Source: an uncultured bacterium (lineage in GTDB: Bacteria; Omnitrophota; Omnitrophia; Omnitrophales; Abzuiibacteriaceae). From it: a stretch of DNA of 64,000 bases. The stretch lies in the NCBI GenBank assembly GCA_964387845.1, contig CAYLXA010000001.1, positions 128,001-192,000 on the forward strand, given 5' to 3'. Under the pieces are notes generated by a model. The model did not search any database. It was given only the letters and a program-made list of their open reading frames with translations, and had not been told where the DNA came from. Position numbers and translations under genes: made by a program. Of the stretch, positions 15,587 through 53,390 are shown piece after piece (position 1 is the first letter of the stretch; each line of letters starts with the position of its first letter).

Positions 15587-15964
15587 TCAAATCAGGAGCT
15601 GAACGGTCGCAAGCTTGGATAAGCTTGGCGGAGATATTTCGGAATGATTTAAAACGCTTGAAGTAAAGCCGGGTACAAAAACTGCTTTGGCCTCTGGTGA
15701 AATGGTTTTAAAACCGGAAACCAATTTTTCTACTTCAAAAGAATGAACGCCTGCAGCTTGATCCTTATTAATCACCATCGGCTTGTCGGTGCAGGCATTC
15801 TCGCCCGGGCAGCAGCAAGAATCGGCTTTGGTTATAATCACTTCATTCGCCGCCGCTTGTGCTGTGGGACAGTGACACAACGCCGCACACATAAAAACAA
15901 ATGTCGGCACTAAAAACACTGCTAACAAAATTCGTAATATTTTATTGCCGCATTTGGTTTTCAT
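15587..15964 (-). CDS. small secreted Cys-rich protein (possible metal-binding accessory protein or regulator)
   Basis: 125 aa. Signal peptide followed by CxxxCHC and SCCCPGENAC clusters. First gene of the efflux operon. Confidence 0.45.
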   Translation of the reverse strand: MKTKCGNKILRILLAVFLVPTFVFMCAALCHCPTAQAAANEVIITKADSCCCPGENACTDKPMVINKDQAAGVHSFEVEKLVSGFKTISPEAKAVFVPGFTSSVLNHSEISPPSLSKLATVQLLI

Positions 15965-16147: not shown

Positions 16148-16175
16148 TGACTTTCTAAAACGCTGAAGAAAGTCA
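16148..16175. promoter_or_regulatory. perfect 8-bp inverted repeat TGACTTTC-N12-GAAAGTCA in the divergent intergenic region
   Basis: Read directly from the sequence at 16148..16155 and 16168..16175. Confidence 0.4.
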
Positions 16176-16187: not shown

Positions 16188-16202
16188 TGTCAAAATTTGA
16201 CA
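16188..16202. promoter_or_regulatory. palindromic operator candidate TGTCA-N5-TGACA
   Basis: tgtcaaaatttgaca lies between the efflux operon and the 1920-aa gene. It shares the GTCA/TGAC core with the neighbouring inverted repeat. Confidence 0.4.
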
Positions 16203-16297: not shown

Positions 16298-19200
16298 GTG
16301 ATGGACAATATGAAAAAGAGTACAAATTTTTTTGTACCTTTATTTAAATCTTTTCTAACTGGCTTACCAAAACGCGTTGTTACAGTTCTAGCCACTTTCT
16401 TCCTAGTCATTAACCAAGTCATTATTCCGGTTCCTAATTCCTTACTTCCCACGCTTAGCCCGGCAATCGCACAAGCTTCGGAAGATAACGGTACGACGGT
16501 GTCGATAGAAGCCTCCGGCGACGCTTATCTATCAAAGCAAAATCCGGATCAAAATTATGGCATTACGGATCTTATTACCGTAGACGGGCAAGACATTAAT
16601 GGAGACCCGAACACTGAGCTACGCGGACTGATCAAATGGAATCTTAGCCAATTGCCGGAAGGCAGTGTGGTCCAATCTGCCAGAATCATCCTTCATCTCG
16701 TCAACCACAGCGGCGGCAATGTTTATACCTTGCACAAATCTACGAAAGACTGGCACGAGGCGGATGTGACATGGAACAATGCAAGTGCCGACTTTGAATC
16801 AGCCTCTCTCGGCATACTGTCATCCAATATTTTAGGATTGCACAGCATCCCGTTGAATAGCGACGGAATTGCAGCCATTCAATCTTGGATCGATAATCCG
16901 GAAACCAATTTTGGATTTTTAATCCTCCCTGACGCAAACAGCACCAACGGCTTTGAATTTAAATCAAAAGATTCTTCTATTAAACCCGTCCTTGAAGTGA
17001 CAGTCACATTTCCTCAGGATGCTAGTTACAACGTTGAGATGTCAGTGAGTGGCGACGGCGCTATTTTCGTGAGCCCGGAACAGCCATTTGGATTTAACGA
17101 TAACGTTACGTTTACGGCGGAAGCCAACGATGGCTGGCAATTTGAAAGGTGGGAAGGCGATCTTGGCGGAGTGGAAAATCCGGCAACGATTCAAATTCAA
17201 AACAACATGAATGTGATGGCTGTTTTTCAATCTCTGGCTCCAGCTGAACCGCAAATGGGAATGTCGACTTGCGGTAACGGCGTGCTCGAAAATGGCGAAC
17301 AATGCGAGGGATCAAATCTGGGAGGTCAAAGCTGCTCAACTCTCGGGAACGGTTCAGGAACTCTTGTGTGTGCAAGCGACTGCACATTCAATATGGGCAG
17401 TTGCGCATTTGCGTGGCCGGCCGAGGCATTTGCATCAGCCGAAAACTTAACTTACATTGATTCTACCGGCTTTGGGGTTAATTTAAGCGGCGCCGCTTGG
17501 AATCCGGTATCACGAAAACTTTGGCTCGTTCGAAATGGCGGACCCGGCGGATCAAAATTGTGGGTATTGAGAGAAAATGGCAGCGGCGGATTTGAAGTTG
17601 ATTATAAAAATGGGCTGCGCGGTGAATGGTCCAATTTTAATGATTTAGAGGCTATTGCGCTGGCTGATTTTAATAATCCCGATGTGGTTTATTTATTAAT
17701 AGAAGGCGAAGAGCGCATTAAGAGATACAACATATCGACCTACGGCACGGCCATTCTTGAACGAAATTGGAACACAAGTCCGCATTTACCTTTAAATGGC
17801 GGGAGCGGCGCTGAAGCGCTTGCTTTTATTCCCGATTCATTTTTGACTGCGCAGGGCTTTGTAGATCCGGCCGGCAATCCGCGCACAAGTCAAAACGGAA
17901 TGGGCGGCTTGATGTTTGTCGGTCATCAAAACGGCGGACGGATTTATGTGTTCGACTTAAATCCTAATAATGACTCTTTCACCTATGTTGGCGCTTATCG
18001 AACAAACTATTCTGAAACTGCAGATCTGGCCTTTGATCGTTCAACCGGTTACTTGTATGTTTTTCATGGCGCCAATCATAATCATACTGAAGTGGTGTCT
18101 CTGGCTTCAACAGTAAACGGAAGTGAGCGAAAGCTTGTCACGCTGGTTGATTATAATCGCCCAACCGGAAGCGCAACAAACAGCAATATGGAAGGCATTG
18201 CGGTTGTTGAAACATCTGATTGTGCGGATGGAAAACGAGATTTCTTTTTGACGATTGATGACGGCGGCGCTGATTCCCTGTTCCGCTTCCGTAATTTTCC
18301 GTGCGGCTTGGCACGCAACAAAGCGCCTGTTGTGAATGCCGGATCCGATCAAACCATTACATTCCCGAACGCCGCTGCATTAAATGCAAGCGCATCCGAT
18401 GATCGTTTGCCCAATGGAACTATTACAACAACGTGGACACAAATTGGATTTGTGCCTGCGCCAGGTGTTTCCGGAAGCGGTGTCGCTACATTTGATGATT
18501 CAACCGCGTTAGCAACAAACGTTAACTTTGACTTGGCCGGCGATTACACGCTCCGCATGACAGTCACCGATGGCGAACTCTCAGCCGCGGACGATGTGAT
18601 TGTAACTGTCGATGAGGCAGCACGGCCTGTTACGTTTACCATTAATGCCTCGGCTGGATCTAACGGGTTTATTTCACCGATTGGAGAAGTTATTGTTGAT
18701 TCAGGCGCTAATCAAACATTCACAATCGCGCCAAATGCCAATTATCACATTGCCAATGTATTAGTAGACGGGGCTTCCGTAGGCGCGGTTTCAAGTTACA
18801 CATTTTCAAACGTAACGGCGAATCATACCATCGCGGCCAGTTTTGAAGTGAATACTTATACGATTGACTCCTCCGCGGGATCCAATGGTTCTATCTCACC
18901 CGCCGGTGTGACGACAGTGAATCATGGCGGTAGTCAAACCTTCACCATGACACCGAGCACAGGCTATCACGTAGCTGATGTGTTGGTGGATGGTGCATCA
19001 GTAGGTGCCGTGTCTAGCTATACCTTCAGCAATGTGACGGCTGATCATACGATTGAGGTGAGTTTTGCAGCAAGCAGTTTCACCATCACAGCTACAGCCG
19101 GCACTAATGGTTCTATCTCGCCAAGTGGTGATGTGGATGTTTCAGCCGGAGATGATCAGGTGTTTACGATAACGCCTAATTCTGGATTTCAAATTCAGAA

Positions 19201-22060
19201 CGTGACGGTTGATGGGCAGCCCGCAGGCGTTCTTTCAACCCATACATTTAGTAATGTCACCGCCAATCACACGATTCACGCTTCTTTTGTAGCAATAGAT
19301 CCTGTGAGAGATACCTACCTCCGGCAAAATACACCAACCACCAATTATGGAAGTGCAACCAGCGTCAATGTAGATGGCGATGAACCGGCAGGAACGGGAC
19401 ACGACGTGTTTGGTCTGTTGCGTTTTAACGTAGCACCTATTCCTGCTGGAAGCATCATTGATGCAATCGAATTAAGATTAAACATCACGAATGACACGCC
19501 GCACACTTACAGAATCTATGAAGTGAAGCGCCCTTGGTCTGAAGATCAGGCTACATGGAACCAAGCAGCAGCCGGTATGCCGTGGCAGGTTGCAGGCGCA
19601 AAAGGGGCCGAAGATCGTGGAGTAATTTTAGCAAATATAGGGCCTCTGGCTCTCGGACAACAGACCATTCTTTTGAATGACGCGGCTAAAAATATAATTC
19701 TCGGCTGGGCCAATAATCCTGCAAATAATCACGGCCTTATGATTGCAGACGAGGCAAGTACAAACGGTTTTGATTTTGCTTCCTTTGAATCGGCAACACC
19801 GCCACAACTCATTATCACCCATCGCCCAGGCTATACAATGACAACCAACGTCAATGGCAATGGGTCAGTATCAAAGAATCCGGATCAACAATATTACACA
19901 AATGGTTCAAATGTTACTTTAACCGCTAACGCAGGAGCCAACTCTGTATTCACCGGCTGGTCGGGTGACGCAACGGGAACCACCAACCCGCTTTCCGTTT
20001 CCATGAATAGCGATAAGAATATAACCGCTAACTTTACTATCAGAACCTATACACTCACGGCGTCAGCCGGTGCAAATGGTTCTATCTCACCCGCCGGCGT
20101 GACGACTGTCAATCATGGAGCGAGCCAGACTTACACCATGACACCGGCAACGGGTTATCACGTAGCCAATGTATTAGTAGACGGGGCTTCCGTAGGCGCG
20201 GTTTCAAGTTATACGTTTAGCAATGTCACAGCGGCTCACACGATCTCTGTCTCGTTTGCAATTAACACTTATACAGTCACCACCACGGCTACTTCAAACG
20301 GCACCATTTCTCTTTCGCCTAATCAAGCTTCGTATAATCATGGTTCAACGGTTACTGTGACCGCAACACCGAATAGCGGCTACACCTTCGCTAACTGGAC
20401 CGGTAGTCTCTCAGGTAGCGTGAACCCGGCCACACTCACGATGGACAGCAATAAAACCATCGGAGCGGTGTTCGCACAGATTCCGACGTTCACGATTACC
20501 CCGTCTGCGGGATTAAACGGTTCGATCTCTCCCGATACCATGGTCAATGTAATGGAAGGCGAGGATCAAACCTTCACCATCACGCCGGCGGCGGGTTATC
20601 ACATTGAAGATGTCTTGGTCGATGGCACCTCTGTTGGCGCAGTCGCAAGCTATACCTTCAGCAATGTGACGGCAAACCATACGATTGCAGCCAGTTTTGC
20701 GGTAAATACCTTCGCATTGTCGGCTTCTGTTTCAGGCAATGGCTCTATTTCAAAAAACCCGGACCAACCATACTACAACAACGGCTCTTCAGTGACTCTC
20801 ACTGCGAATGCAGGAGCTGATTCTGTATTCATCGGCTGGTCGGGCGATGCTTCAGGAACTGCTAATCCACTTTCGGTCACGATGAACGGCGATAAAAATA
20901 TTACGGCTAACTTTGCCGTTCGAACTTATTCATTGACCGCATCCGTTGAAGGAAGCGGCTCCATATCACCTTCAGGAGTTACATCGGTCAGCCACGGCGG
21001 GAGCCTAACTTACACGATAACCCCGGCAGCCGGTTATCGGATCCAATTTGTGAAAGTGGACGGCGTTTCGGTTGGCGCCGTTGAAAGCTATACGTTCAAT
21101 AACGTTACCGCCAACCATACGATTGCAGCAACTTTTTCAGTGAACACGTTCATTGTCTCTGCTTCTAACGGCAGTAACGGAAATATTTCACCCGTCGGAA
21201 ATACTCCGGTTAATGAGGGTGCTGATCAAACCTATGTGATTACTCCTGATTCAGGCTATGCTATTGAAGACGTGCGTGTAGACAATCAGTCGATGGGTGC
21301 AATTCCAAGCTACACCTTTAGTAATGTGACCGCCAATCACACAATTTCAGCAAGCTTCACCATGATTAGGCGCGCGTTAACCATTAGCACCAACCGCGGG
21401 CTTGGCGGAGCAGTCATTATCAATCCGGACAGCCCGGACGGCACTTATCTGCACGGCACGGAAGTAACCTTGACGGCTATTGCAAACCCCGGAAATATTT
21501 TCTCGGGATGGAGCGGAGACGCGGCGGGTTTGATTAATCCAGTCACAATCACCATGGACGCAGATAAAAATGTAACGGCTAATTTCAGCATGATCACTTA
21601 TTCGATAGAAGTTGAGACGACAACCGGCGGCGCGGTAGAAGTAAGCCCTGAAGGCCCACACTATTTGGGAGATGAAATTACACTGACAGCCACGCCGGAC
21701 TCAACTCACACCTTCAATGGATGGAGCGGCGACGTTACCGGTTCTGAAAATCCGATCTCAGTGACCGTAACGGGAAACATGAACATTGCGGCAAATTTTG
21801 CACCGATTACTTATACGCTCAATATAACCACAATCGGAAACGGAACCGTCACAAAAAGCCCGAATATGACGGATTACCCGGCAGGCACATCGGTAACCTT
21901 GACCGCGAACCCCGCGCGTTTCTGGAATTTTCTGCGCTGGACAGGAAACGCTTCGGGAACCAATCCGGTTATTACAGTTGTCATGGATGGCAACAAAAAC
22001 ATTCAGGCACGCTTTAAGCAGGGCCTAAGTCCATTCAGCGGCGGCGGCCCGGCATCGTAA
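16298..22060 (+). CDS. 1920-aa secreted/surface protein: two DNRLRE-type domains, a Cys-rich region, a beta-propeller-like region, a PKD domain and ~14 InlB-B-repeat-like domains
   Basis: N-terminal signal/anchor. The DNRLRE-like blocks are NTELRGLIKWNLSQLP...VTWNN and VFGLLRFNVAPIP...ATWNQ. The PKD-like block is APVVNAGSDQTITF. Many ~75-aa repeats have the pattern G..GS.SP.G..Y..G..VTLTA.P..G..F.GWSGD or ..GYH..DVLVDG..VGAV.SYTFSNVTANHTI. Confidence 0.85.
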   Translation: MMDNMKKSTNFFVPLFKSFLTGLPKRVVTVLATFFLVINQVIIPVPNSLLPTLSPAIAQASEDNGTTVSIEASGDAYLSKQNPDQNYGITDLITVDGQDINGDPNTELRGLIKWNLSQLPEGSVVQSARIILHLVNHSGGNVYTLHKSTKDWHEADVTWNNASADFESASLGILSSNILGLHSIPLNSDGIAAIQSWIDNPETNFGFLILPDANSTNGFEFKSKDSSIKPVLEVTVTFPQDASYNVEMSVSGDGAIFVSPEQPFGFNDNVTFTAEANDGWQFERWEGDLGGVENPATIQIQNNMNVMAVFQSLAPAEPQMGMSTCGNGVLENGEQCEGSNLGGQSCSTLGNGSGTLVCASDCTFNMGSCAFAWPAEAFASAENLTYIDSTGFGVNLSGAAWNPVSRKLWLVRNGGPGGSKLWVLRENGSGGFEVDYKNGLRGEWSNFNDLEAIALADFNNPDVVYLLIEGEERIKRYNISTYGTAILERNWNTSPHLPLNGGSGAEALAFIPDSFLTAQGFVDPAGNPRTSQNGMGGLMFVGHQNGGRIYVFDLNPNNDSFTYVGAYRTNYSETADLAFDRSTGYLYVFHGANHNHTEVVSLASTVNGSERKLVTLVDYNRPTGSATNSNMEGIAVVETSDCADGKRDFFLTIDDGGADSLFRFRNFPCGLARNKAPVVNAGSDQTITFPNAAALNASASDDRLPNGTITTTWTQIGFVPAPGVSGSGVATFDDSTALATNVNFDLAGDYTLRMTVTDGELSAADDVIVTVDEAARPVTFTINASAGSNGFISPIGEVIVDSGANQTFTIAPNANYHIANVLVDGASVGAVSSYTFSNVTANHTIAASFEVNTYTIDSSAGSNGSISPAGVTTVNHGGSQTFTMTPSTGYHVADVLVDGASVGAVSSYTFSNVTADHTIEVSFAASSFTITATAGTNGSISPSGDVDVSAGDDQVFTITPNSGFQIQNVTVDGQPAGVLSTHTFSNVTANHTIHASFVAIDPVRDTYLRQNTPTTNYGSATSVNVDGDEPAGTGHDVFGLLRFNVAPIPAGSIIDAIELRLNITNDTPHTYRIYEVKRPWSEDQATWNQAAAGMPWQVAGAKGAEDRGVILANIGPLALGQQTILLNDAAKNIILGWANNPANNHGLMIADEASTNGFDFASFESATPPQLIITHRPGYTMTTNVNGNGSVSKNPDQQYYTNGSNVTLTANAGANSVFTGWSGDATGTTNPLSVSMNSDKNITANFTIRTYTLTASAGANGSISPAGVTTVNHGASQTYTMTPATGYHVANVLVDGASVGAVSSYTFSNVTAAHTISVSFAINTYTVTTTATSNGTISLSPNQASYNHGSTVTVTATPNSGYTFANWTGSLSGSVNPATLTMDSNKTIGAVFAQIPTFTITPSAGLNGSISPDTMVNVMEGEDQTFTITPAAGYHIEDVLVDGTSVGAVASYTFSNVTANHTIAASFAVNTFALSASVSGNGSISKNPDQPYYNNGSSVTLTANAGADSVFIGWSGDASGTANPLSVTMNGDKNITANFAVRTYSLTASVEGSGSISPSGVTSVSHGGSLTYTITPAAGYRIQFVKVDGVSVGAVESYTFNNVTANHTIAATFSVNTFIVSASNGSNGNISPVGNTPVNEGADQTYVITPDSGYAIEDVRVDNQSMGAIPSYTFSNVTANHTISASFTMIRRALTISTNRGLGGAVIINPDSPDGTYLHGTEVTLTAIANPGNIFSGWSGDAAGLINPVTITMDADKNVTANFSMITYSIEVETTTGGAVEVSPEGPHYLGDEITLTATPDSTHTFNGWSGDVTGSENPISVTVTGNMNIAANFAPITYTLNITTIGNGTVTKSPNMTDYPAGTSVTLTANPARFWNFLRWTGNASGTNPVITVVMDGNKNIQARFKQGLSPFSGGGPAS

Positions 22061-35932: not shown

Positions 35933-38900
35933 TTAGGCTTTGATGATGAGTTCGTGCGCATTTTGGAATTCTGCTCTTAACTCGCTTGAAAACTTGACGA
36001 TATTGAACAATCCTCTGATATCGTCGGCAGAACTTTCATCATCAATAACGCCGCGGTTTTTCATAGCAAGCGCAATCCCCCGGTCCTCTTTTAAGCCAAG
36101 CGCCTGGATAAAACCAACCTGTAGCTTCTTTTTTAAATAATGCGCCGCCTGATCGGGATATTGAAACACTTTCATTCGTTCATCGGCTTGAAAAGAAACG
36201 GCCGCGGCTCCGTCCGAAACCACCGCGACTTCATAACCTTGCGCTTTATAGTAACGCACAAGAAGCGGTGTCACGGTGCCCGCTTCGCGCGTTAAAATAT
36301 CCATCAAAATTACGCCGCGCTTTAAATGGAGATCTTGATTCGAGTCGCCGCTGATTTCAAACGTTCGGTTTAAATAATTTCTAAGTTCCGGCGTTAAAAA
36401 CAACCCCGGATCCGCATCGATTTGCCGCGCGGCTTCTCGCACGCTTGATTCCATAGTTTCTATATGCATCTCGAGCCCGTCAAACGGGTTTAGATGATCA
36501 AATCTTAACTCGGACTTGGCGCCATCACCTTTAACCAAGTAAGTGTAAATTTTCTGAAATTCATGTTCATAGCTTTCGGTAAATTTTTCTTCTTTCTCGG
36601 CCACGCGGCGATAATATTCCGAAGCTTGTCCGGTAACATACTGCCACAAGGTAAAATTTGTCTGATTTTGTTTATTAAAATCAGCCAACTGCTCTGCGTC
36701 TATTTCACCTTGCGCCTCTCCCTGGTGGCGTAGAAAAATCGGTATCTCCGGCCCTAGAAAAACTTCGGGAAAAAGCGCGGCAATTTGCCTGACGATGCTT
36801 AGGAAATCTTGGGACGGATCATTGTCTAAATTCTCTGAAATATCCTGAAGAATTTCTCGGTAGGCTTCCAAACCGAAGGCGTCCACTGGAAAATCATTTT
36901 GCTTAAAAAACTCAGCCCCGTGCGAGGCCGCTGTCTTATTCGGAACAAACAAAAGGCCATTGATCAGCGCGGAACCGTACTCCAATATTTTCTGCCTATT
37001 TTGAACAGGATCTTTTAGAAATTCTTTTAATGAAGGCAAAAACCCTTTGATTAAAATGGGCATCAATTGAATATCCAGTTCATCTGTCCCGATACGGTGA
37101 TCATGCCTTAAGTGCGGGCCCAGGATTCCGAATAAAAGAGCTGCTCCTTGCGCGGATTTTTGCGCAAGCGCCGCAGCGTTATCAAGAAAGACTTGGTCAT
37201 TGTCAGCAAATGACAAAAGTTTTTTAAGCAGCAGGCCGTCAGGTTCGGGAATTACATCATTCAAACGGCCGTCTTCATGCCCCCGCAGTTCGGAACGGTT
37301 TTCAATGGTAATCAAAACCTCTTCCTGTGCGGGGTTTTTGGTTGGAATCACCCTGACCTTAAATTCAAGTGATTCTGAAGCATCGTTCAATACAAATGTC
37401 CCGTAATCGGAACCGGCGCGCTGCCGTTCGATGGCAACATCTTTTGCTATTAACTTCACCAATGTAAAAAAGTGAAGCGCATTTCCGGCAGGTTTGGCAG
37501 TGAAATGCCTGGCAGAAATCTTGCTGTCTGAATCTTTAGACACGATTACGGTAACAACAGCACCGTTACGAATCAACCGCACAGATTTTGCCTGCTTCAA
37601 TTTGAAAACGGGTTTCAGCACATAAGATTGAACCAATTTTGAATAAGGAAGCGGTGTTTCATGGTTGGATGCGATTGACAATAAAAATCGGCCTTGATCC
37701 CGGTTCATGATCCAGAGTGCAAATTGCGCGCCCTTAAGCTCCAACCGTTCCCTTTCGGTCATCGTGCGGCTTTGGGTCAAGCGCTTCATATCCAACTTAT
37801 CAAAGCGCTCCAAGAGCCCATGGAACTTTCCGGGGTCGAGCAGCTCATCCGCGTCAACCTCGGAAAGCACAAGAAGAGTCAGTAAGTGGCCAAGCTGTCT
37901 AAATAACGGGCTTTTATCTCTAAAGTCCTCGAAAAGATTCTTCGCATCTTCAAGCAGGCTGCGGACTTCATCATAGGCAAGGCCAGATGCTGTCAAATAT
38001 CGCATTTTGCCCACCGCGCGCAAAAATTGCCCCTCTTGATCCATGGTTAATCCGACTTTATTTTCGGTTTCTGGATCATCCGGATTGATAATTTCGATGG
38101 GGTCAAGGCCTTCGCGGAAATCTTCCTCTAAAAATTTCTTCAATTCATCCGAACGTTTTCCCATTTCGATTAAAAGCTGGGATAACGCCCTTAATTCGGA
38201 ACGCTGCCCTCCGGCAGAGCCGTTTTGTGCATTATTGCGCTTCTTATAATTTGACACTTCAATAGACAAATCATTGATTTCATTGGCTAACGCTTCAACT
38301 TTAAAAATAAGCTTTCGATTTGGATTTTTTGGATCGGCGAGAATGAACGAGCCGATTTGATCAACATTTCCCCGGTTAATATCGATCTGCTGCGTAAAAA
38401 ATTGCAGTAAGGTTAAAAAATAAAACGCGTCTTGCTTTTCTAATTTGAACTTTTCAGATTTTATGACGTCGCGCTGTGCGTCTGAATCCAGATAGTAAAT
38501 TTCGACTGTATTTGTCTTTTGAACACGTTTGATTTTAATGAAGCCAATATCATCCTCTTTAAATGCCGGGTCTATGATCATTTGCTTTAATAACTGGCCA
38601 ACCTGAAACTGCCTGATCGCCAAATGAATAAAGCGGCCTTGATACTGTCTCATGCCGGCCAACAAGTATTTTGCCGCTGCCGCGATCAGCTTGTCCATCG
38701 GGTCCAGCGGCTGTCCGTTCCGTTCGGAATAATGAAATCTCATAGCTAAGCTGACCAGTTCGTGAAATATGTCGGTTTGAAAATATGTGTTGAGCTTTTC
38801 GGGCGTTCTTGCTAATTCGGTTTGAATTGTTTCGAGCTCACTTCGAAAACCATCGGCTACACTAATGTAGTGATAAGTACCCGCCGCAGAAATAGCTTGT

Positions 38901-41900
38901 GTCAAAAGCTGGTCGAAGCGCCGGTTGTGAACCAGATAAAATAGCGGCGGATAGGCACCATGCTCCAAATCAACTTGGCCAACCACATAGTCAAAGAAAT
39001 CTTTGACTGCTTTTTTTGCATCATTGTTGCCGAGCCGCATCATCACACTGTCTTTTTGCTTGACTAGTCTCTGCGTCAACAATTCTTCAATTTCAAATAA
39101 GCGCTGGCCCATCTCGGCCAAGTCGATTTCCAGTTTGCTCCATCCGCTATTTCCGATATCGCCCGATTTGGTTCGGAGTTCGGATCTTTCCGCAGGTTGT
39201 TTTTGATTATCAAACTCGGCGGTCAATTTAAACGATCTAGCATGTTCGGCGTCGAATGCTTCGAGCATCGGGTCGGCGTATTCGAAAAGCCAGCTAAAAT
39301 CTTTTTCTGCCTCGGGAGTTTTAAAACCAAAGTCTTCTGTAAAAATAGAGAAATCAACCTCAGGCCGGCCGCTCAATAAAAATGTAAGACTAAGCGGATT
39401 TTCTATCTCACGATTACCGTTGATTTCGTCCAGCCATGCTTGAAATAATGCGGCTAGGCGTATTTTCCTTTTATCCAAACTGCCGTCCGGACGCATGATA
39501 TGCCTTAAATTCTTCAGTTCGTTTGCAACCGCTTCGCGCCGCTCTTCGTCTGAAAATGATTGAATATAATCATCAAAGTTGCCGGGTGGCCCGATCTCCT
39601 TCAGAACTGCTTCTGCCAATACTACGAATTGCTCATAATGAGGCTGGGTGGCATACACAACATAACGCCGAAACCAATCCTTCATTTTGGGATCTTGATA
39701 ATAATCAAGAAGCCTTTTCATCGAAGGATCCTTTTGAGCCGACTCATAAAATGTCTCCCCTTTAAGGATCATCTTCCTGTTCAGGTCTTGGTCGAATCGA
39801 TAGCTGCCGTCCGGCTGTATCGCCAAACTAATATTGTTGCGGTGAATCTGCCGATATTTTTTAAATTGCACTGCCCGGGGATTATTCGTTTTTTCGGGAT
39901 AATGAATGAATTTTGCCACATTAATAAAGTACCGAATATTCATCAGCCGGAATTTTCTGGGAAGCCAAGCTGTATAATCATAATCGATGGCAGCCAAGGC
40001 ACTGTTGGGTTCGTCCTTAGATTGCGGCGCCTTCATCAGAACAATTTCAAAGGGTTTCAGCAAAGACCGCCCGTTCAGAGTCACTTCATTGCCGATTGCC
40101 AAACGGGACCCTTTGCTAATCAAACTGATAAATTCCCGGATCAAATTGCGATCCTCTTCGGTTTCGGCATATTTCAGATCTTGATCCAGGATAAAGCGAA
40201 GTTCTTCCGCCAGTCTGTCCATTTTCTCCGAATTCCCCGGCGGAACCCGGAGCGCAAACTGATCAAGCTTGCTGAAGCCAATAGACAAATCGACTGGATC
40301 ATACGGAACTTGCGGTGCCGGATCTTCAAATAGGCGATATTGCAAATCCCGCTTAAACCACCGGACAACGGGGAAATAATAAAATAATGCGGCAATCATC
40401 GATAGCACAGACCCAAAAACCGAGGCCCAAACTATCCGCTTCTTCAGAATTTGCCGTTTTGCATGCTTAAGCCGCTTCTGGCGCTCAAGCAGATTATTCA
40501 AAGCTTGTTTAGCAAGTGAAACGATGTGATGATCGCTATCCTCCGGGCCGAATTCAAACTGAATAACTTGCCCGCGCTTTGTTTCAAGTGCCGCGTATCC
40601 GGATTTTCCATTCTCAGGCAAAAGCACAAACGGTTTTTCCCATGGCCCATGGAAAACAAACGGCTCTTCGTTCGGTAATCTGAGAATCAATTTCTCAATC
40701 TCCCCGGGCCGTTCGGCTTGGCGCCTTTCTTCATCCAATCGTTGTTCGTTATTCCGCCAATCCCTTTTTATTTGCTGAACTTTTCCTAACGCGTCCGCCC
40801 TTTTGGCAGCCGTGGTCTCATCATCATGGAGCACATTTTGGTATTCTGTGTGGCCGAACAGTTTTGTCAGCAAATGATCACGGGATTGAGCGGTCGGAAG
40901 GCCATAAACAACCTCCGCCACGTGAAGCACTCCGCTTTCAATTGCGCTCCGGAGCGAATTTAACTTTGATGGCGTAGCATCAAGCTCTTTTCCTCTCGCC
41001 GGAATTAGATGAAACGGCAAATGACTTTTCCCGGAATCTAAGAATAAACTGATAGATCGTAGTTTTTTTCCGTTTAATTCAATTTCTTTTTTAAAGTTAA
41101 TTTGAATAGTTGATGGCTTGCCAGAATGATCCACGATGATTCGAGTGTGGCTGGAAAAATCGTTCGCCACACCGATAATTGTGTCGGCTATTTCTTTTTC
41201 AGGAACGAGCGGCCGAAAACCTAAATGAGTCCATATTTGAATAATACGTGGATCACGACTTTCGCCTTCTAATTTTAGAACGCTTCCGTTCTTAGACGAT
41301 AATTGATTCTGTGCTATGAATTCGATTTTGCCGTGAAGTTTATGATTCAACCTCGTTGGGTCTATGGTTTCAAGCCGCACCACTTCAGTGCTTGCGCGAA
41401 GCTCTGATCGCGGCGTAGTTTGATTAGTTGCAATTCTGGTAAAGACGAGATAATGCCAATAGCGCCCTGATTTGTAAAAAGCCGGGATGGCGCGCGATCC
41501 TGTAGAACTTTGCCATTCTTCAGGATGAATAAATTCGCGAAATGCTTTTAATATGGAATCGCCCGCTCCATCAAAATCGAACTCTAGCTCGTCAAAGGGG
41601 TACTCAAAAGTAATTTGGCCGCCCTCCGGAATCCTGGCAATTAACTGCCGAAACCACTCTTGCGAGAGCGAATCGACGTAGCGGTCGATATTTCCAAAAC
41701 GGACATGACGATAAGCCGGCTCTTGAAATAACAAGGCGGGATCCCGGATATCAACCCGGCGGATTTCTATTTGGTCACCGAGACGTAAGAATTTTTTGGC
41801 TCGTTTCGAAAAAGCCTCCACGAAAAACGAGCGGTCTGAGAAAATAAAATGATCATCACCGCTGATTTGTTTAAAAAAGTTCACGGCGTTGGTTCCTGAA

Positions 41901-44900
41901 GCCAGATCCAAAACCGGCAGTCTTCTTAATTTTGGATCATTTGAGTTCAAATAAACCGGCACTTCGTCGTCAAAATGTTTCGCCGAAAATGCCATCACGG
42001 CTGCAAACTCGCCTAACTTCTGCAAAAATAATCTTGCTTCGGGTAAATTTTCAAGATAAGCACGCTCCGAAAATTGAATGACTCTCTCTAATTCATCGTA
42101 AATATATTCAAAATCAGAAAACATTGGAAGCGATCGCACAACTTCCGGCCAAAACGTATCAAAATTCAAATAGTAATGATATTGAAATATCATTTGAGCC
42201 AAATATCCGTTGGCTTGCCGAAGGATTCGGCCACGCAAATCTTTGTAATCCTCGATTCCGAACTTTTCTAAAAGCTCGGTGGGCCACGGCTTTGAAACTC
42301 TACGGCTGCTGATTTGATGAAAAACGTGCAAGCTCAAAAACCCGACGGTAGAAGCAACTACAACCGGCCACATCAAGCTACGAAGCTCAGAACGAATCCA
42401 TTTATCCGATAAGTCATGCTGGATTTCGCGGAACTGTTCGCGCCATTGAATCAGCTCGGCGTTTCGTTTGCGTGCATCATCCGCAATTGCTTGAAGCGGT
42501 TTTGGCACCATGCTTTGAACATAATATTGAATATCCAATTGAGCAAACCAGTTCCCAAAACGATATCTTTCACCATCCGGAATTTGACTCAGGTTAAAGT
42601 TTTCATGTTTTAATTTGGAAATAGCGAGCTGCCCTGCCAAGCGAGTCGATAAAGCTCCTGAAAAATAAAGCTGGAGCAACTTTGTTAAATGAAAAAAGTA
42701 AACAAAGTTAAGCCCATTGTTGCCAAATAAAACAGGGTCAAATGCAAACGCATCCTCTCCGCCTTTTTCAGGCCTAAAGTAGAGATCGATTAAGTTCGAA
42801 TTAAAAGAAGCATCTTTGACGTGGGTTATTCCGATTTCCCGCCATATACGCACATCCAGATCACCAATTCCCAACGCGTGGCGTAAACTTCCAAATAAAT
42901 AAACTCGCGGATATAAATCCGATTCAGAATAGCTTTCTTTAGCGCGTACAAAATCGAGTGCCTTTTTCAACTCATCAACCAAAAGAATTGAATTTTGAAA
43001 ATGTTCTAAATTAGTATAAGGATGCGTCAGGTGAAAATACAGCCGATGAAGCATATTGTGGACAAAACTCACGCCATTGATTTCTTCAAAAAGCCGGAGA
43101 TCTGCGGGAAGCACTCTTAGGCGTGGAGACTTTTCTTTGTTCCAACTGCGGATCAGCTGTTCAATCTCAGAATTGATTTGGATGTAGTTTTCTGATGCGC
43201 CCGATTCGAGATCTGGTTTGGCTAGGTCTTTTGATAACTGGAATAACTGATCCTCCATCGACATAATTTTCATGAAAAAATCAAAATCATCATCTGTTAA
43301 AGATCTATGGATGCTTTTCTGAATTTGCTTCAGAAAATAAATCGTATTGTCGAGGAGAATTTTGTGCGCTGCATCCTGCGGTATGTCAAAATGATCGAAC
43401 ATTTTTTGCGCCATTTTTTCAGCGGTTGGATAGAAAAGCGGCTGACCCAATTCATTCATTCTGAGTTCAGAACGGCGAGCAGTCTTCAAGAAACCTGATG
43501 CACCTGCCAACACTTTGCCTGCTTCAGGTAAACTTAATCTTCGAAGGAGCAATGGTTTCACGTTCTTCGCGGCTTTTCGTCTAGCGACTAAATACAAGAC
43601 ACCTTCAAATTCGGTTGCCGCCTCTTTTAAAGTCAGTTCTCGAAGCGGTCCGTCAATACCGTACTTTTCCCAACTCGCGCTTCGGCTTAAGGGGAGGCCA
43701 AAAACCTGAACGTCGATGTTTCGCCGTCTGAAGAGATTGACTAATTCGGCATTTGTCTTGACGCCGCGCGGATTAAGGCTGGATTTGGTTGCGTAAAGCA
43801 GTACGGAATTTTGAACAACGACCGAAGCGCCCGGGCTCATATTTGCCAAAACTTCTCCCGCAACTTTTTGAGCATCAACGTAATTCAATAAATTTGAAAT
43901 GACAATGGTGTCAAATTGAGAATATAAATGCGGCGGACTTAGCTGAGAAGAAGGCTTGCCCTCACGAAGAACCAAATCGATTGCATGGCGATCCTCCGGG
44001 CTCATACTCTCGATCCGCTCAACATCCGCCCGCACAGTCAAAACGTTACCCTTCTGCTCAATATCCTTGGGTGGGCGGAGAGCAAGCGCCACGATTTTTT
44101 TCTTTGGATACATTACAGCTGACAAAGGATTGCCCCCATCCCCCAATTCTAAAATTCGATCCCCTAAACCGCCGGATCGTTCTAACGCTGAGAAAACAGT
44201 TGCTAAATCGCCTCGAAATGTGACATCTTCGTCCCTATAAAAATTCCGCCATAGAAATTCACGGCCGAGATTGGTCAATTCCAGCTCAGAGGTCTTGCCC
44301 ACCACACTGCCTTGAAACACGGACGACAAAGACACAGCCGCTCGATTGCCGTCCTGCATCTGTAAACTTAAATTTCCCTCAAAAGAAGAAGCGTGGATGG
44401 TTATTTTGATTGTTTTTTTATTCTCATCGTCAAATTCCAGAAAATAACTTTCGCTCAAACTTCCTCCGGTTGCGATTTTTTTCGAAAAAGGTTTTTCCTT
44501 GGTATAAAAAGAAATGTTTTTTTGAATCAGGCGGACAAATTTCTGTACTTCTTCCGGCACATCACCGATGGTTTTGAGATCACCTGTTTTAAAAGTTCCC
44601 TCGGCCGAGCCAACAAAAACGAAACCGGTTTCATACTGCGTAAAAAACTGAAATCGCGAGGCCTTCTCTGCCTGAGTTTCATTGGGAACTACTCGAATGT
44701 TGTACCAATCGCCGCTGACAGGATGATAAACCAATAATAAAAATCCATGGCCATTTAATTCGTCTGCAAAAAATAAGTCGCCAATTCTTGGGTTCTGTGG
44801 ATCGGGCTTTCTTCTGCTTTCAAAACTGCCCAAATAGCCGGCGGCCTGCAGGCGCGCTATCAGACGAATGGCGGCAGGGCTAAATGTTTCGCTTTGTTCG

Positions 44901-45286
44901 CGCAATCTTTCATCGGATAGGGCCCTAAAAATAAATTGACGCTTGTCGGTTCTTCGCCGGTAACGCGCAATAGAAAAGTCTTTTAAAAATTCATCAGCCG
45001 TGAGCGCTTTGCCGTTATATTTTTTAAGAAATCTGGAAAGTCTTTCAACGTCTTTCTTTAAAATGGAAATCCGCGAAGCCTGGTTTGCCAGCGCGCTTGT
45101 CCGCAATTCAGAACGGACAATAGCCGGATTTAAGTTCCGGAAGGAACGGCTCTTTAAATAACTTGCGGCTTTTTGAAAGAAGGCGGTGGCAGACGGAATA
45201 TCACTGTACGCAATGGTGCTTGTGAAGGTAAAACTCAGCAGGGTTGTGAGGGCAATGGTTTTGAATAAAGCGGACTTTAATTTCAC
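35933..45286 (-). CDS. 3117-aa giant secreted/membrane protein with seven RSELR/KSELR motifs and two Rossmann/methyltransferase-like motif-I regions
   Basis: Single uninterrupted ORF. Signal peptide MKLKSALFKTIALTTLLSFTFTSTIAYS. Two central hydrophobic helices (LMWPVVVASTVGFLSLHVF; IVWASVFGSVLSMIAALFYYFPVV). ILELGDGGNP and VLDLASGTNAV resemble SAM-MTase motif I. Confidence 0.85.
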   Translation of the reverse strand: MKLKSALFKTIALTTLLSFTFTSTIAYSDIPSATAFFQKAASYLKSRSFRNLNPAIVRSELRTSALANQASRISILKKDVERLSRFLKKYNGKALTADEFLKDFSIARYRRRTDKRQFIFRALSDERLREQSETFSPAAIRLIARLQAAGYLGSFESRRKPDPQNPRIGDLFFADELNGHGFLLLVYHPVSGDWYNIRVVPNETQAEKASRFQFFTQYETGFVFVGSAEGTFKTGDLKTIGDVPEEVQKFVRLIQKNISFYTKEKPFSKKIATGGSLSESYFLEFDDENKKTIKITIHASSFEGNLSLQMQDGNRAAVSLSSVFQGSVVGKTSELELTNLGREFLWRNFYRDEDVTFRGDLATVFSALERSGGLGDRILELGDGGNPLSAVMYPKKKIVALALRPPKDIEQKGNVLTVRADVERIESMSPEDRHAIDLVLREGKPSSQLSPPHLYSQFDTIVISNLLNYVDAQKVAGEVLANMSPGASVVVQNSVLLYATKSSLNPRGVKTNAELVNLFRRRNIDVQVFGLPLSRSASWEKYGIDGPLRELTLKEAATEFEGVLYLVARRKAAKNVKPLLLRRLSLPEAGKVLAGASGFLKTARRSELRMNELGQPLFYPTAEKMAQKMFDHFDIPQDAAHKILLDNTIYFLKQIQKSIHRSLTDDDFDFFMKIMSMEDQLFQLSKDLAKPDLESGASENYIQINSEIEQLIRSWNKEKSPRLRVLPADLRLFEEINGVSFVHNMLHRLYFHLTHPYTNLEHFQNSILLVDELKKALDFVRAKESYSESDLYPRVYLFGSLRHALGIGDLDVRIWREIGITHVKDASFNSNLIDLYFRPEKGGEDAFAFDPVLFGNNGLNFVYFFHLTKLLQLYFSGALSTRLAGQLAISKLKHENFNLSQIPDGERYRFGNWFAQLDIQYYVQSMVPKPLQAIADDARKRNAELIQWREQFREIQHDLSDKWIRSELRSLMWPVVVASTVGFLSLHVFHQISSRRVSKPWPTELLEKFGIEDYKDLRGRILRQANGYLAQMIFQYHYYLNFDTFWPEVVRSLPMFSDFEYIYDELERVIQFSERAYLENLPEARLFLQKLGEFAAVMAFSAKHFDDEVPVYLNSNDPKLRRLPVLDLASGTNAVNFFKQISGDDHFIFSDRSFFVEAFSKRAKKFLRLGDQIEIRRVDIRDPALLFQEPAYRHVRFGNIDRYVDSLSQEWFRQLIARIPEGGQITFEYPFDELEFDFDGAGDSILKAFREFIHPEEWQSSTGSRAIPAFYKSGRYWHYLVFTRIATNQTTPRSELRASTEVVRLETIDPTRLNHKLHGKIEFIAQNQLSSKNGSVLKLEGESRDPRIIQIWTHLGFRPLVPEKEIADTIIGVANDFSSHTRIIVDHSGKPSTIQINFKKEIELNGKKLRSISLFLDSGKSHLPFHLIPARGKELDATPSKLNSLRSAIESGVLHVAEVVYGLPTAQSRDHLLTKLFGHTEYQNVLHDDETTAAKRADALGKVQQIKRDWRNNEQRLDEERRQAERPGEIEKLILRLPNEEPFVFHGPWEKPFVLLPENGKSGYAALETKRGQVIQFEFGPEDSDHHIVSLAKQALNNLLERQKRLKHAKRQILKKRIVWASVFGSVLSMIAALFYYFPVVRWFKRDLQYRLFEDPAPQVPYDPVDLSIGFSKLDQFALRVPPGNSEKMDRLAEELRFILDQDLKYAETEEDRNLIREFISLISKGSRLAIGNEVTLNGRSLLKPFEIVLMKAPQSKDEPNSALAAIDYDYTAWLPRKFRLMNIRYFINVAKFIHYPEKTNNPRAVQFKKYRQIHRNNISLAIQPDGSYRFDQDLNRKMILKGETFYESAQKDPSMKRLLDYYQDPKMKDWFRRYVVYATQPHYEQFVVLAEAVLKEIGPPGNFDDYIQSFSDEERREAVANELKNLRHIMRPDGSLDKRKIRLAALFQAWLDEINGNREIENPLSLTFLLSGRPEVDFSIFTEDFGFKTPEAEKDFSWLFEYADPMLEAFDAEHARSFKLTAEFDNQKQPAERSELRTKSGDIGNSGWSKLEIDLAEMGQRLFEIEELLTQRLVKQKDSVMMRLGNNDAKKAVKDFFDYVVGQVDLEHGAYPPLFYLVHNRRFDQLLTQAISAAGTYHYISVADGFRSELETIQTELARTPEKLNTYFQTDIFHELVSLAMRFHYSERNGQPLDPMDKLIAAAAKYLLAGMRQYQGRFIHLAIRQFQVGQLLKQMIIDPAFKEDDIGFIKIKRVQKTNTVEIYYLDSDAQRDVIKSEKFKLEKQDAFYFLTLLQFFTQQIDINRGNVDQIGSFILADPKNPNRKLIFKVEALANEINDLSIEVSNYKKRNNAQNGSAGGQRSELRALSQLLIEMGKRSDELKKFLEEDFREGLDPIEIINPDDPETENKVGLTMDQEGQFLRAVGKMRYLTASGLAYDEVRSLLEDAKNLFEDFRDKSPLFRQLGHLLTLLVLSEVDADELLDPGKFHGLLERFDKLDMKRLTQSRTMTERERLELKGAQFALWIMNRDQGRFLLSIASNHETPLPYSKLVQSYVLKPVFKLKQAKSVRLIRNGAVVTVIVSKDSDSKISARHFTAKPAGNALHFFTLVKLIAKDVAIERQRAGSDYGTFVLNDASESLEFKVRVIPTKNPAQEEVLITIENRSELRGHEDGRLNDVIPEPDGLLLKKLLSFADNDQVFLDNAAALAQKSAQGAALLFGILGPHLRHDHRIGTDELDIQLMPILIKGFLPSLKEFLKDPVQNRQKILEYGSALINGLLFVPNKTAASHGAEFFKQNDFPVDAFGLEAYREILQDISENLDNDPSQDFLSIVRQIAALFPEVFLGPEIPIFLRHQGEAQGEIDAEQLADFNKQNQTNFTLWQYVTGQASEYYRRVAEKEEKFTESYEHEFQKIYTYLVKGDGAKSELRFDHLNPFDGLEMHIETMESSVREAARQIDADPGLFLTPELRNYLNRTFEISGDSNQDLHLKRGVILMDILTREAGTVTPLLVRYYKAQGYEVAVVSDGAAAVSFQADERMKVFQYPDQAAHYLKKKLQVGFIQALGLKEDRGIALAMKNRGVIDDESSADDIRGLFNIVKFSSELRAEFQNAHELIIKA

Positions 45287-46547: not shown

Positions 46548-47416
46548 CCGATCCGGAGCCGGACGGTTTCCTGTTTACCGTCTTTCTCGATCACAATGCT
46601 GGTGGGCTTAATTTCAATGATCTTCGTATGGCCCACTTGATCGCCGGGGCGCCAGATTTTTCCATTAATCAAAACAACCGGGTCGGAAGCATCATACATA
46701 ATGCCTTCCAGCACTAAATCTTCATGAGGCGCAGATTCAGCCCATGTCTTGAAAGGATTACGGCCGAATTCCCGGAACCGTGTCTTGCCTGCTTTTCGCA
46801 ATTCAACCGACAATTGGCCTTGATCCATATAAATCAGCTTTTCGTCATTCTCCGGAACAAAAACGGATACCGTCAGTGGCCCCCGGAGAAAATCGCTTTC
46901 GGGATTAGGCGGTGAAAACCGGAATTCGTCAACCCGCATGACGGCTTGATCCAACTTTCCCAGTTGTGAAAGAAATAGCGCGACATCCTGATAACTACCG
47001 CGGATCGTCATATCGATCGGAATCCGCGATAAATTCGGAAGCAGTTTTTTCTCGCTTTCATTTAAATCGGTTTTTGCCCTGGGTGAAATAGAATCAAATT
47101 GCACATTAAAGCGTTTGCCGGTGCTTGTGATTTGTTCGATGTAGGTCGCAACATTATTTCCTGACGTAAACTTAGCGAGCTCTTCTTTTAATTCTGCATT
47201 CGCGGCGGGTTCATTCAGCCGGTCCAATTGCCAGACTTCCTCGCGGTAATGATCCAGCTGGCGGCGGGTCTCGTAATAACCACTTTTTGCCTTGTCCACG
47301 CGAAGCGCCATAACACCGACTAGTGCAAGCATCGCGCACCCGATGACGCCGATAGCGCTCATTGGAATATGCTTGTGCCCGATTTTGATATCAATTTTCA
47401 TGTCTGAAAACTTCAA
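46544..47416 (-). CDS. fused PilO-like / PilP-like pilus assembly protein
   Basis: TM helix, then a coiled coil, then a PilO-type block (IDMTIRGSYQDVALFLSQLGKLDQAVMRVDEF). The C-terminus has a PilP/GspC-like beta-domain (VLINGKIWRPGDQVGHTKIIEIKPTSIVI). Confidence 0.5.
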   Translation of the reverse strand: MKFSDMKIDIKIGHKHIPMSAIGVIGCAMLALVGVMALRVDKAKSGYYETRRQLDHYREEVWQLDRLNEPAANAELKEELAKFTSGNNVATYIEQITSTGKRFNVQFDSISPRAKTDLNESEKKLLPNLSRIPIDMTIRGSYQDVALFLSQLGKLDQAVMRVDEFRFSPPNPESDFLRGPLTVSVFVPENDEKLIYMDQGQLSVELRKAGKTRFREFGRNPFKTWAESAPHEDLVLEGIMYDASDPVVLINGKIWRPGDQVGHTKIIEIKPTSIVIEKDGKQETVRLRIG

Positions 47417-49020
47417 ATCGCCTCTCCCAATATTGAAAAAGTGACTGATTTTTCATTCCGGTCAGACTCGGCCAAAGTAGGTTTTCGAAAAACCGGGCCT
47501 TCAATCTGCTCCAGTGATTTCGAGAGGAGCCCCTGCTGACTGTCGACCGGGAAACTGCCTTTAATGATAAACAAGCCTCTCTGATAAGAGAATTCGGATA
47601 AAGTCACTTCTCTCGGAAATGCTTGAGATAACTCCTGAAAAACATCCTCCCAGTAAGGTTCTGAGGAAAAAACTCCGGAGATCAGTGTTTTCACCTGCAT
47701 GCTTTTCTGACGGATTGCTTTCACTTTTTGCGCTTCTTCATATCCCGGCTGCAGGTTCGCAATTTGCAAATGTAAAGACTTTGTCTTATCTGAGATGGTA
47801 ATGGATTGCCAGGCCAGACTTGAAAACAGTAAAACAAAAGCGGTCAAAGCGGCAATGGCTGTTTGCCGGTACGAAAAGAATTTAACCGCGGAGTTCCCCA
47901 TCTTGAGCAAATCGGGAAGCCACGGCTTTTTTAAATTATGCCTATCTAAAATAATGCTGATAGGACGGTAAAAACCGTTCAAATCGTCTTCACGGAGTTT
48001 GTCGGAAATTTCAATGTCCTGGAAAAAATAAACGGGCTTAACGGGGACTTGGAGAGTTTGTTCCACAAATTGAATAAACCCCTTAAGTCGGCTTCCGCCG
48101 CCTGTGAGAAAGATACGTTCAATTCCTTCCCCGTGTTCCTGGGAGTAAAAATCAAAAGAACGCCGGAGTTCACCGGTTAATTTTTGTAAAACGGGCCGGA
48201 TGAGCGGATATAATTTTGAAGCTTCGATTTTGCCGGCAATCAAATTTTCATTTTCGGCACCCAAAAATACGCTCTCATGCCGTGCCCGATCGGCCTCTTC
48301 CATGGTTAGCGCAATGCGTCCTTTATCAGTCACGATAGGCTGCGTGAGCGCCTGGCTCAATAATTCGCCGCCGAAAGAAATTTTGCGCAGAAAATCAAGC
48401 CGGCCGCCCGCATAAAGCGCGATTTCCGCAATTTTATGGCCAATATCAACCACTGTTACCAAATGCCGCGTCGACTGTGCGAAGGCATACGGCAAATGAT
48501 CGACTTCGAAAGCTGCATTCGCCAATTCAAAAGAACTGCAGCCGGATTCGCGGAGAATGCCGGCCAATGTCTCATAAACCTTGACGGGAAGAGCTGTTAC
48601 TAAAACTGTCTGTCTAAGGTCCTTTTTTTGACCCGGCATAGGTACGATTTTGTAATCTAGTTTCGCTTCTTCGATGGCAAACGGGAGTTCATCTTTTACT
48701 TTCCATTTAATTGTGTCGACCAAGTCTTTTTGAGATATGTTCGGAACGACAAAAGACCCGAAATAAGTTTGGAGGCTGTTGGTTACTAAAAAAACGGTAT
48801 GGCGGCTCAAATCAAACCCGGACAAAGCTTTCGCGGCTGCTTGCTTCAGCGTTTCCCTGGCCTGAGCAACATCCTCGTAAGGCGGAACCGGAATGCTCCG
48901 TGCCTCCAGAAGATGGAACCGCTTTGCGGCCGTTTTTATCTGGACAATTTTGACAGAGGAAGAAGCGAACTCGATTGCCAAGAAGAAGCGTTCGCGGTTT
49001 TCGTTGGGCCAATTCAGCAT
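47413..49020 (-). CDS. fused PilM (actin-like ATPase fold) - PilN pilus assembly protein
   Basis: N-terminus LAIEFASSSVKIVQIK, a PilM-type start. After ~370 aa there is a TM helix plus a PilN/GspL-like periplasmic region. Confidence 0.65.
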   Translation of the reverse strand: MLNWPNENRERFFLAIEFASSSVKIVQIKTAAKRFHLLEARSIPVPPYEDVAQARETLKQAAAKALSGFDLSRHTVFLVTNSLQTYFGSFVVPNISQKDLVDTIKWKVKDELPFAIEEAKLDYKIVPMPGQKKDLRQTVLVTALPVKVYETLAGILRESGCSSFELANAAFEVDHLPYAFAQSTRHLVTVVDIGHKIAEIALYAGGRLDFLRKISFGGELLSQALTQPIVTDKGRIALTMEEADRARHESVFLGAENENLIAGKIEASKLYPLIRPVLQKLTGELRRSFDFYSQEHGEGIERIFLTGGGSRLKGFIQFVEQTLQVPVKPVYFFQDIEISDKLREDDLNGFYRPISIILDRHNLKKPWLPDLLKMGNSAVKFFSYRQTAIAALTAFVLLFSSLAWQSITISDKTKSLHLQIANLQPGYEEAQKVKAIRQKSMQVKTLISGVFSSEPYWEDVFQELSQAFPREVTLSEFSYQRGLFIIKGSFPVDSQQGLLSKSLEQIEGPVFRKPTLAESDRNEKSVTFSILGEAI

Positions 49021-49027
49021 GATGATT

Positions 49028-51246: not shown

Positions 51247-51248
51247 GA

Positions 51249-51659: not shown

Positions 51660-51678
51660 TCCATTGCGATGAATCTAA

Positions 51679-52152: not shown

Positions 52153-52175
52153 GATGAAACTCCTCCTTCGTTTGT

Positions 52176-53384: not shown

Positions 53385-53390
53385 TGCTTA

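Follow-up and report, generated by a model that had tools for sequence, protein, structure and literature searches.

Old, diverged InlB-B repeat units and a conserved beta-propeller in a large, putatively exported protein with multiple domains from an uncultured member of the Omnitrophota

Does a large repeat-rich gene of an uncultured Omnitrophota bacterium encode a rapidly varying surface adhesin, or are its repeats old duplicates that evolve slowly? The question is raised by an open reading frame (ORF) of 1920 codons at 16298..22060 on the plus strand of a 64,000-nucleotide stretch of genomic DNA (contig CAYLXA010000001.1, positions 128,001 to 192,000; "the window" hereafter). The original prediction, made from the sequence alone, described the product as an adhesin-like protein with near-identical intragenic DNA repeats, which would expand and contract by slippage or recombination and which would also be a likely source of assembly collapse. 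A hypervariable adhesin of this kind, if true, would have drawn attention to a mechanism of phase variation and, at the same time, to a hazard for the assembly. The reading favored here, with somewhat better than even confidence, is a different one, namely that of an exported glycan-binding multidomain protein with ancient repeat duplicates, whose gene would not be a fast-switching contingency locus.

The ORF is a single uninterrupted frame, as had been predicted. It opens at a GTG at 16298, while the public annotation P0001, the NCBI call of the gene product (1916 aa, 100% identical), begins four codons later at the ATG at 16310. This ATG is likely the true start of a 1916-aa product. From the N-terminus the protein consists of a leader, a first DNRLRE module, the InlB-B unit B0, a Cys-rich linker, a beta-propeller of about 305 aa, a PKD domain, the units A1 to A3, a second DNRLRE module, and the units B4 to B13 (Table 1). 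The predicted pair of DNRLRE-type domains was confirmed by two profiles, NF033679 (NCBIfam; 161 bits versus a cut-off of 34, in two stretches) and PF24517 (Pfam CBM96), the cut-off of which, 26 bits, is clearly exceeded by both modules. The predicted PKD domain corresponds to a K319L-like PF22352 match. The Cys-rich linker has no family above threshold, the nearest matches being DUF4215 (E = 0.08) and myxo_disulf_rpt (E = 0.07).

Divergence of the repeat units

The estimate of about 14 InlB-B-repeat-like units was also correct. When the protein was divided at its recurring motifs, exactly 14 were delimited, seven of an "A" subtype (VDGxSVG..SYTFSNVTA) and seven of a "B" subtype (W[ST]G). The whole protein matches the PF18998 profile with 373.5 bits over 12 stretches (cut-off 23.6, E = 3e-114). 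Single-unit scans took in the seven A units together with B0, B4 and B13, and left out B6, B8, B11 and B12; all ten scanned units align with about positions 1-70 of the 73-position profile, and eight of them score above the cut-off, with A1 (21.5 bits) and A2 (22.8 bits) slightly under it. Further Pfam matches of the A-type units (18629..21364) to MlaD, ThiI and GCV_T_C, with E-values down to 5e-9, were treated as spurious, because no single stretch passes alone and the scores look like low-complexity or repeat-summed scores. The MlaD match is also present in the precomputed annotation of P0001 and of P0002, the ortholog described below.

At the DNA level the 14 units are old, diverged duplicates, and they are not near-identical. 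All of them are distinct sequences, and the codon-aligned pairwise identity is 51-72% among the A units and 41-69% among the B units. Tandem Repeats Finder (TRF), run on the gene with a minimum score of 30, returned no array, and the families reported by a repeat finder within the gene are 60-73% identical. A self-BLAST of the gene yielded nine high-scoring segment pairs of 67-84% identity, the one with 84% being just 44 nt long, and no pair of 100-nt windows within the gene exceeds 82/100. B8-A9 is a duplicate of the two-unit cassette B4-A5 (19856-20217 versus 20735-21096), with 70.9% identity over 364 nt. The claim of near-identical repeats is thus contradicted by the missing TRF array, by the identity of the units and by the best 100-nt window. 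Of the two examples that had been given for it, the segments 18759..18799 and 20169..20209 match at 11 of 41 positions as written, and at all 41 after a shift of 3 nt, as part of a maximal repeat of 47 nt. The second pair, 18889..18960 and 20083..20165, for which more than 85% identity had been claimed, consists of segments of unequal length; in register (versus 20080..20151) the value is 59/72, i.e., 82%.

Contingency-type surface proteins, for example of the Alp/Rib family or Bap-like proteins, carry tandem repeats that are near 100% identical in DNA. The protein resembles them in its repeated small domains and in a unit number that differs between related genomes, in contrast to the identity of its repeats, which is just 51-72%, and to the absence of a TRF array. 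Tandem DNA of about 90-100% identity, the hallmark of repeat-variable surface proteins, was not found in the gene. Expansion and contraction by slippage or recombination needs long, highly similar repeats, which are absent here, and therefore this part of the original prediction is unsupported.

Gene conversion and evolution of the array

The longest exact repeat in the gene comprises 47 nt, while shuffled sequences contain 14 nt at most. Its copies are located inside A1 and A5 (Table 1). The two units are identical at 66/123 positions to the left of this tract, at 47/47 within it, and at 31/52 to the right, i.e., they are 54-60% identical outside of it. The other A units, including A2, encode nearly the same peptide at the tract with many synonymous differences, and match at 33 of the 47 nt or fewer. 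In a GENECONV-style permutation of the variable sites A1 and A5 share a run of 34 matches, compared to a maximum of 24 in 10,000 permutations (global p<1e-4). Under the codon usage of the gene, the chance that 15 identical residues share identical codons is 3e-9. Unit A5 is a mosaic of A2-like flanks around an A1-identical core, and the match is read as a short intragenic gene-conversion tract.

A mosaic would also be in line with an assembly artefact, that is, with an array that was collapsed or joined chimerically when a genome was assembled from metagenomic data. The window apparently stems from such a genome, and the closest named RuvB relatives are all records of this type. The patch is read as gene conversion and not as a mis-join because it has two boundaries within A2-like flanks, whereas a mis-join would give a single switch point. 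In addition, the ORF runs uninterrupted through 5.8 kb with its 14 distinct units, and an ortholog from a separate assembly is colinear at both gene ends and in the unique domains. The longest exact repeat would be shorter than typical reads and than the final k-mer sizes of assemblers, and because it comprises just 47 nt, the predicted assembly collapse is unlikely. Taken together, an artefact in the repeat region is considered highly improbable.

The same 47-nt repeat has to be weighed in view of the idea of a variable surface adhesin, the repeat number of which would frequently shift via slippage or homologous recombination between near-identical DNA. The copies are in frame, 471 codons apart, and are in principle long enough for RecA-type recombination. 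A crossover between them would yield an in-frame deletion, and no sign of such an event was found. One conversion event is demonstrable, and the number and order of the units differ from those of an ortholog. The age of these differences could be deduced from a comparison of the two genes.

The sole full-length ortholog among 5.8 billion clustered proteins is P0002, which has 1700 aa and is encoded on contig L001. Two metagenome scans yielded no further ortholog: the first used the DNRLRE-2 segment as query and found no relatives, and the second used the two-sequence alignment and returned just the known ortholog contig and distant DNRLRE proteins. Two additional candidates, L031 and L032, were rejected due to their different domain architectures. 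The position of the ortholog is syntenic, because its gene is also divergent from a small ORF that is followed by OEP-MFP(HMBD)-RND efflux genes. The RuvB proteins of the two lineages are about 92% identical, and P0002 belongs to a different species-level lineage. A third relative (P0162) has a RuvB with 91% identity.

P0002 has 11 units in the order A-B-A-A / DNRLRE-2 / B-A-A-B-B-B, while the order in the window beyond B0 is A-A-A / DNRLRE-2 / B-A-B-A-B-A-A-B-B-B, so that the comparison with this one ortholog of another species-level lineage is one of 14 versus 11 units. The units at the ends of the array and those flanking DNRLRE-2 are orthologous, with 62-80% DNA identity. The counterpart of the cassette B6-A7 in P0002 is B2-A3, located on the opposite side of DNRLRE-2, and A2 and the cassette B8-A9 represent additional duplicates of A5 and B4-A5, respectively. 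The paralog pairs A2/A5 (72%) and B4/B8 (69%) are no more similar than the ortholog pairs, and therefore the cassette duplications date back to about the time at which the two lineages diverged. On this basis the cassettes appear to have been duplicated and relocated by slow evolutionary shuffling and not by contingency-type variation. The array would thus be recombinationally plastic over evolutionary time, and its sequence lacks the hallmarks of rapid variation.

Several further results are consistent with slow evolution. The identity to P0002 is 65-75% for most domains and 84% for the propeller, which is within the range of 53-90% found for neighboring genes. The ratio of nonsynonymous to synonymous substitution rates (dN/dS) of orthologous segments is 0.06-0.25, well under 1, with a saturated dS, which was undefined for three segments. 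Three contigs, which stem from JGI and Logan, encode exactly the 1700-aa product of the ortholog. With units that are 51-72% identical, a best 100-nt window of 82%, no near-identical tandem array, duplicates as old as the species split, and an ortholog product that recurs unchanged, a frequently varying adhesin is quite improbable. Recombination among the repeats, as it had been predicted, is retained as a past event, which is documented by the conversion patch and by the unit order of the ortholog, and is dismissed as a source of rapid variation.

The favored reading, a slowly evolving array in an exported protein, can be formulated as follows. The repeat units would be ancient duplicates under purifying selection, the array would have evolved through occasional events in which cassettes of one or two units were duplicated and relocated, and at least one short gene-conversion event of about 47 nt would have shaped it. 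Neither phase variation nor an assembly hazard is supported, and therefore the gene is usable at face value in annotation. It also represents a clean example of the evolution of an InlB-B array by cassette duplication and relocation, combined with a micro gene-conversion patch.

The propeller family and the proposed role of the protein

The predicted beta-propeller-like region was borne out by a structural model. Residues of about 376-680 have no sequence match in Pfam, NCBIfam or PDB, and the AlphaFold2 model, calculated from an alignment of 73 sequences, has five blades, a predicted local distance difference test (pLDDT) score of 94.6, and a predicted template modeling (pTM) score of 0.92. 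The best structural match, on which the fold is superposable, is YjiK (PDB 3qqz), with 13% sequence identity. The domain does not match PF06977 (SdiA-regulated) at E<=1 and does not reach its gathering score, nor any other Pfam threshold, including that of the Phytase-like family PF13449. Below threshold, 18 of the 73 family members match SdiA-regulated (best E 0.0011) and 13 match Phytase-like. In contrast to YjiK and its relatives, the propeller belongs to a distinct, tightly conserved family. A search yielded 278 matches at E<1e-5, mostly "hypothetical proteins" of 350-500 aa, and an exhaustive profile search 1142 cluster representatives at E<=1e-3. The members stem from Planctomycetota, Myxococcota, Acidobacteriota and other phyla, and standalone homologs are 48-62% identical to the domain across phyla. 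The family (loci L003-L029 and the domain itself) comprises mostly small proteins that look secreted. In some homologs the domain is joined to dockerin, FlgD-Ig or Ig/TSP-like repeats, all of them extracellular contexts. As neither Pfam nor NCBIfam has a model for it, the family is a candidate for a new domain entry.

Could the protein primarily be an enzyme? In this case the propeller would be catalytic, e.g., a metal-dependent hydrolase or lyase active on glycans or cell walls, the CBM96 modules would target it, and the repeats would be linkers. This is the main rival explanation. Carbohydrate-binding modules usually accompany catalytic modules (PMC9971899), and the propeller is the most conserved domain of the protein. 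Its invariant residues are numerous (E74, E82, E100, E137, D184, D211, E263, D285, H221, Q175, and R242), and the many acidic ones among them may represent a metal site or an active site. The weak matches of the 13 family members noted above are to "Esterase-like activity of phytase". These points are opposed by a best structural match that is remote and has no known function, by the absence of a sequence match to any solved enzyme and of mapped catalytic residues, and by the gene neighborhoods of four standalone homologs, which share no conserved partner or pathway. Therefore, an enzyme is regarded as possible, and as rather unlikely.

For the favored reading, an exported glycan-binding protein, the first requirement is export. 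As read from the translation, the leader combines a basic stretch with the hydrophobic segment VVTVLATFFLVINQVIIPV and may be cleaved at AQA|SE, and it is 65% conserved in P0002. This conserved combination is a putative export signal. Glycan binding is suggested by the two DNRLRE/CBM96-type modules. DNRLRE, which now forms the CAZy family CBM96, is known from polysaccharide lyases, S-layer proteins and disaggregatases (PMC9971899). The founding member of CBM96, TM6-N4 of the alginate lyase Dp0100, binds internal alginate chains, with Lys10/22/25/27/31, Arg36 and Tyr159 as key ligand residues (PMC9971899). The likeness to TM6-N4 is known from the profile scores, which are well above the cut-offs for both modules, and the attached polysaccharide-lyase catalytic module of Dp0100 has no counterpart in the window's protein. 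A phmmer search with DNRLRE-1 found no relative in PDB, and neither did a PDB sequence search with the repeat half.

Several points weigh against the favored reading. The signal peptide was judged by eye only, the CBM96 membership rests on profile scores, one ortholog was available for comparison, and YjiK, the closest structural relative of the propeller, is without known function. Pfam and NCBIfam scans detected no anchor or secretion module, namely no autotransporter barrel, RTX, T9SS CTD, PEP-CTERM, LPXTG, S-layer homology (SLH) domain or lipobox, and the C-terminus ends with ...FKQGLSPFSGGGPAS, without a hydrophobic segment. The protein could simply be released instead of being attached to the surface. 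The description as a large, repeat-rich extracellular protein is right, and the label "adhesin" remains unproven, as the scans turned up neither an anchor nor a sorting domain.

With these reservations, the exported glycan-binding protein might be organized as follows. The two putative glycan-binding modules and the conserved propeller would be the working parts, and the PKD domain and the 14 small InlB-B domains would form a stalk that spaces and projects them. The likeliest role would be the binding, and possibly the modification, of an extracellular polysaccharide or of the surface of another cell. A more far-reaching version proposes that the propeller is a new extracellular catalytic or receptor-recognition module, which, together with the two CBM96 modules on the InlB-B stalk, attaches to or attacks the envelope or the exopolysaccharide of a host or prey; this is speculative and unlikely.

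The protein belongs to the already known large extracellular proteins containing InlB B-repeats (PF18998 Flg_new_2, PF09479 Listeria-Bacteroides repeat, TIGR02543), with which it shares long arrays of units, and the propeller is its most interesting component. Its closest relatives beyond the ortholog, P0003 and P0012, are named InlB B-repeat-containing. Differences are that two diverged subtypes are interleaved, that the array is broken by the second DNRLRE module, and that the receptor-binding leucine-rich repeat domain of InlB was not detected. S-layer-homology domains, LPXTG motifs and GW modules are typical of other InlB-B-repeat members. The relatives P0003 and P0020 carry a Por_Secre_tail (PF18962), in contrast to the protein described here, which lacks such an anchor as well as those common in Gram-positive members. 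The gene also draws attention to a well-conserved beta-propeller family without a Pfam model, most members of which are small, apparently secreted proteins of Planctomycetota, Myxococcota and Acidobacteriota.

Lifestyles that depend on a host or on prey are suspected for the phylum Omnitrophota, and the protein adds a candidate cell-contact protein to it. Large and giant multidomain proteins have been reported for Omnitrophota, with a proposed role in the attachment to other cells (10.1101/2023.11.21.568195). The protein shares the phylum and a multidomain, extracellular-type architecture with them (10.1101/2023.11.21.568195; PMC10066038). At 1.9 kaa it is far smaller than the "giant" class as described there, and InlB-B and DNRLRE were not found among the terms looked up in 10.1101/2023.11.21.568195.

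Table 1. Features of the repeat-protein gene and of the spacer upstream of it (positions in the window)
Feature	Position	Strand	Remarks
Palindrome TGACTTTCT-N10-AGAAAGTCA	16148..16175	.	arms identical in ortholog spacer
Palindrome TGTCAAA-A-TTTGACA	16188..16202	.	identical in L001
CDS, large multidomain protein	16298..22060	+	ORF read; P0001 100% identity
N-terminal leader, putative signal peptide or signal anchor	16310..16477	+	read from translation
DNRLRE / CBM96 module 1	16496..17002	+	NF033679 aa 75-235; PF24517 65.7 bits
InlB-B unit B0	17021..17236	+	PF18998 38.5 bits; 75% to ortholog unit, DNA and protein alike
Cys-rich linker, 6 Cys	17237..17422	+	sub-threshold matches only; 71% conserved in P0002
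Five-bladed beta-propeller, unannotated family, remotely YjiK/SdiA-regulated-like	17423..18337	+	
K319L-like PKD (Ig-like) domain	18338..18610	+	PF22352, 35.4 and 42.3 bits
Tandem A units	18629..19294	+	pairwise DNA identity 56-64%
Unit A1	18629-18850	+	
47-nt exact repeat, copy 1	18752..18798	+	inside A1
Unit A2	18851-19072	+	
Unit A3	19073-19294	+	
DNRLRE / CBM96 module 2	19295..19828	+	PF24517 62.8 bits; second NF033679 stretch; 66% to ortholog
Ten InlB-B units	19829..22024	+	order B4 A5 B6 A7 B8 A9 A10 B11 B12 B13
Unit B4	19829-20044	+	
Unit A5	20042-20263	+	
47-nt exact repeat, copy 2	20165..20211	+	inside A5; 1413 nt (471 codons) downstream of copy 1
Unit B6	20267-20482	+	
Unit A7	20483-20704	+	
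Unit B8	20708-20923	+	
Unit A9	20921-21142	+	
Unit A10	21143-21364	+	
Unit B11	21380-21595	+	
Unit B12	21593-21808	+	
Unit B13	21809-22024	+	

Spacer and genomic neighborhood

The divergent arrangement of the gene and a metal-efflux operon, which had been predicted together with palindromes in the spacer between them, was verified, and the operon consists of OEP-MFP(HMBD)-RND genes. Two palindromes are present, and both are conserved in the spacer of the ortholog. They were recognized by aligning the two spacers and had been missed by an inverted-repeat search. The one with the arms TGACTTTCT and AGAAAGTCA occurs once in the window versus 0.01 expected occurrences, while TGTCAAA-A-TTTGACA occurs once versus 0.46 expected and, due to this chance expectation, is not significant alone. 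The 333-nt spacer is mostly diverged between the two genomes, with the exception of a near-invariant block of about 60 nt (16143-16205; about 9850..9915 in L001), which contains both palindromes, and a second conserved block near 16066-16090, TTAAAAA(T)TTTTTAGGTGTAA. The presence of a near-invariant palindromic block in a diverged spacer supports a conserved regulatory element, and the block is a candidate for it. A scan of the region for promoter and terminator consensus sequences remained below the chance expectation. A functional tie of the protein to the adjacent efflux operon was rejected, as the adjacency is found in just two related genomes and the protein has no indication of metal binding. 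The operon is headed by a 125-aa ORF (15587..15964, minus strand), which has no Pfam family, is 56% conserved, and has the same position in L001; it may encode an accessory or periplasmic efflux component.

The window is chromosomal and contains genes for fumarase, PFOR, NrfAH, a PilM/T2SS-F/T2SS-E cluster and RuvB, the best named relatives of which all belong to Candidatus Omnitrophica (72-77% identity). Downstream of the repeat-protein gene, a block of about 8 kb (22094..~30000) separates it from a pseudouridine synthase gene and is absent at this position in L001. The block contains two small family-less ORFs and genes for NmrA/DUF2867, a 2-hydroxyacid dehydrogenase, NrfA, NrfH and a 546-aa ORF. 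An even larger ORF of 3117 aa (35933..45286, minus strand) matches no Pfam family at E<=0.01, and its N-terminus resembles a signal peptide. Because the flanking formyltransferase-like and ArsP_1 permease genes are adjacent in L001, this gene is lineage-specific or inserted. A cluster with PilM-like, T2SS-F and T2SS-E genes, the latter with a MshEN domain, is located at 47413..55088 on the minus strand and is followed by a PAS/HAMP histidine kinase gene (55870..58287); PilM- and PilO-like genes recur in L001. The cluster may encode a type IV pilus or a type II secretion apparatus, which could bear on the export of large proteins.

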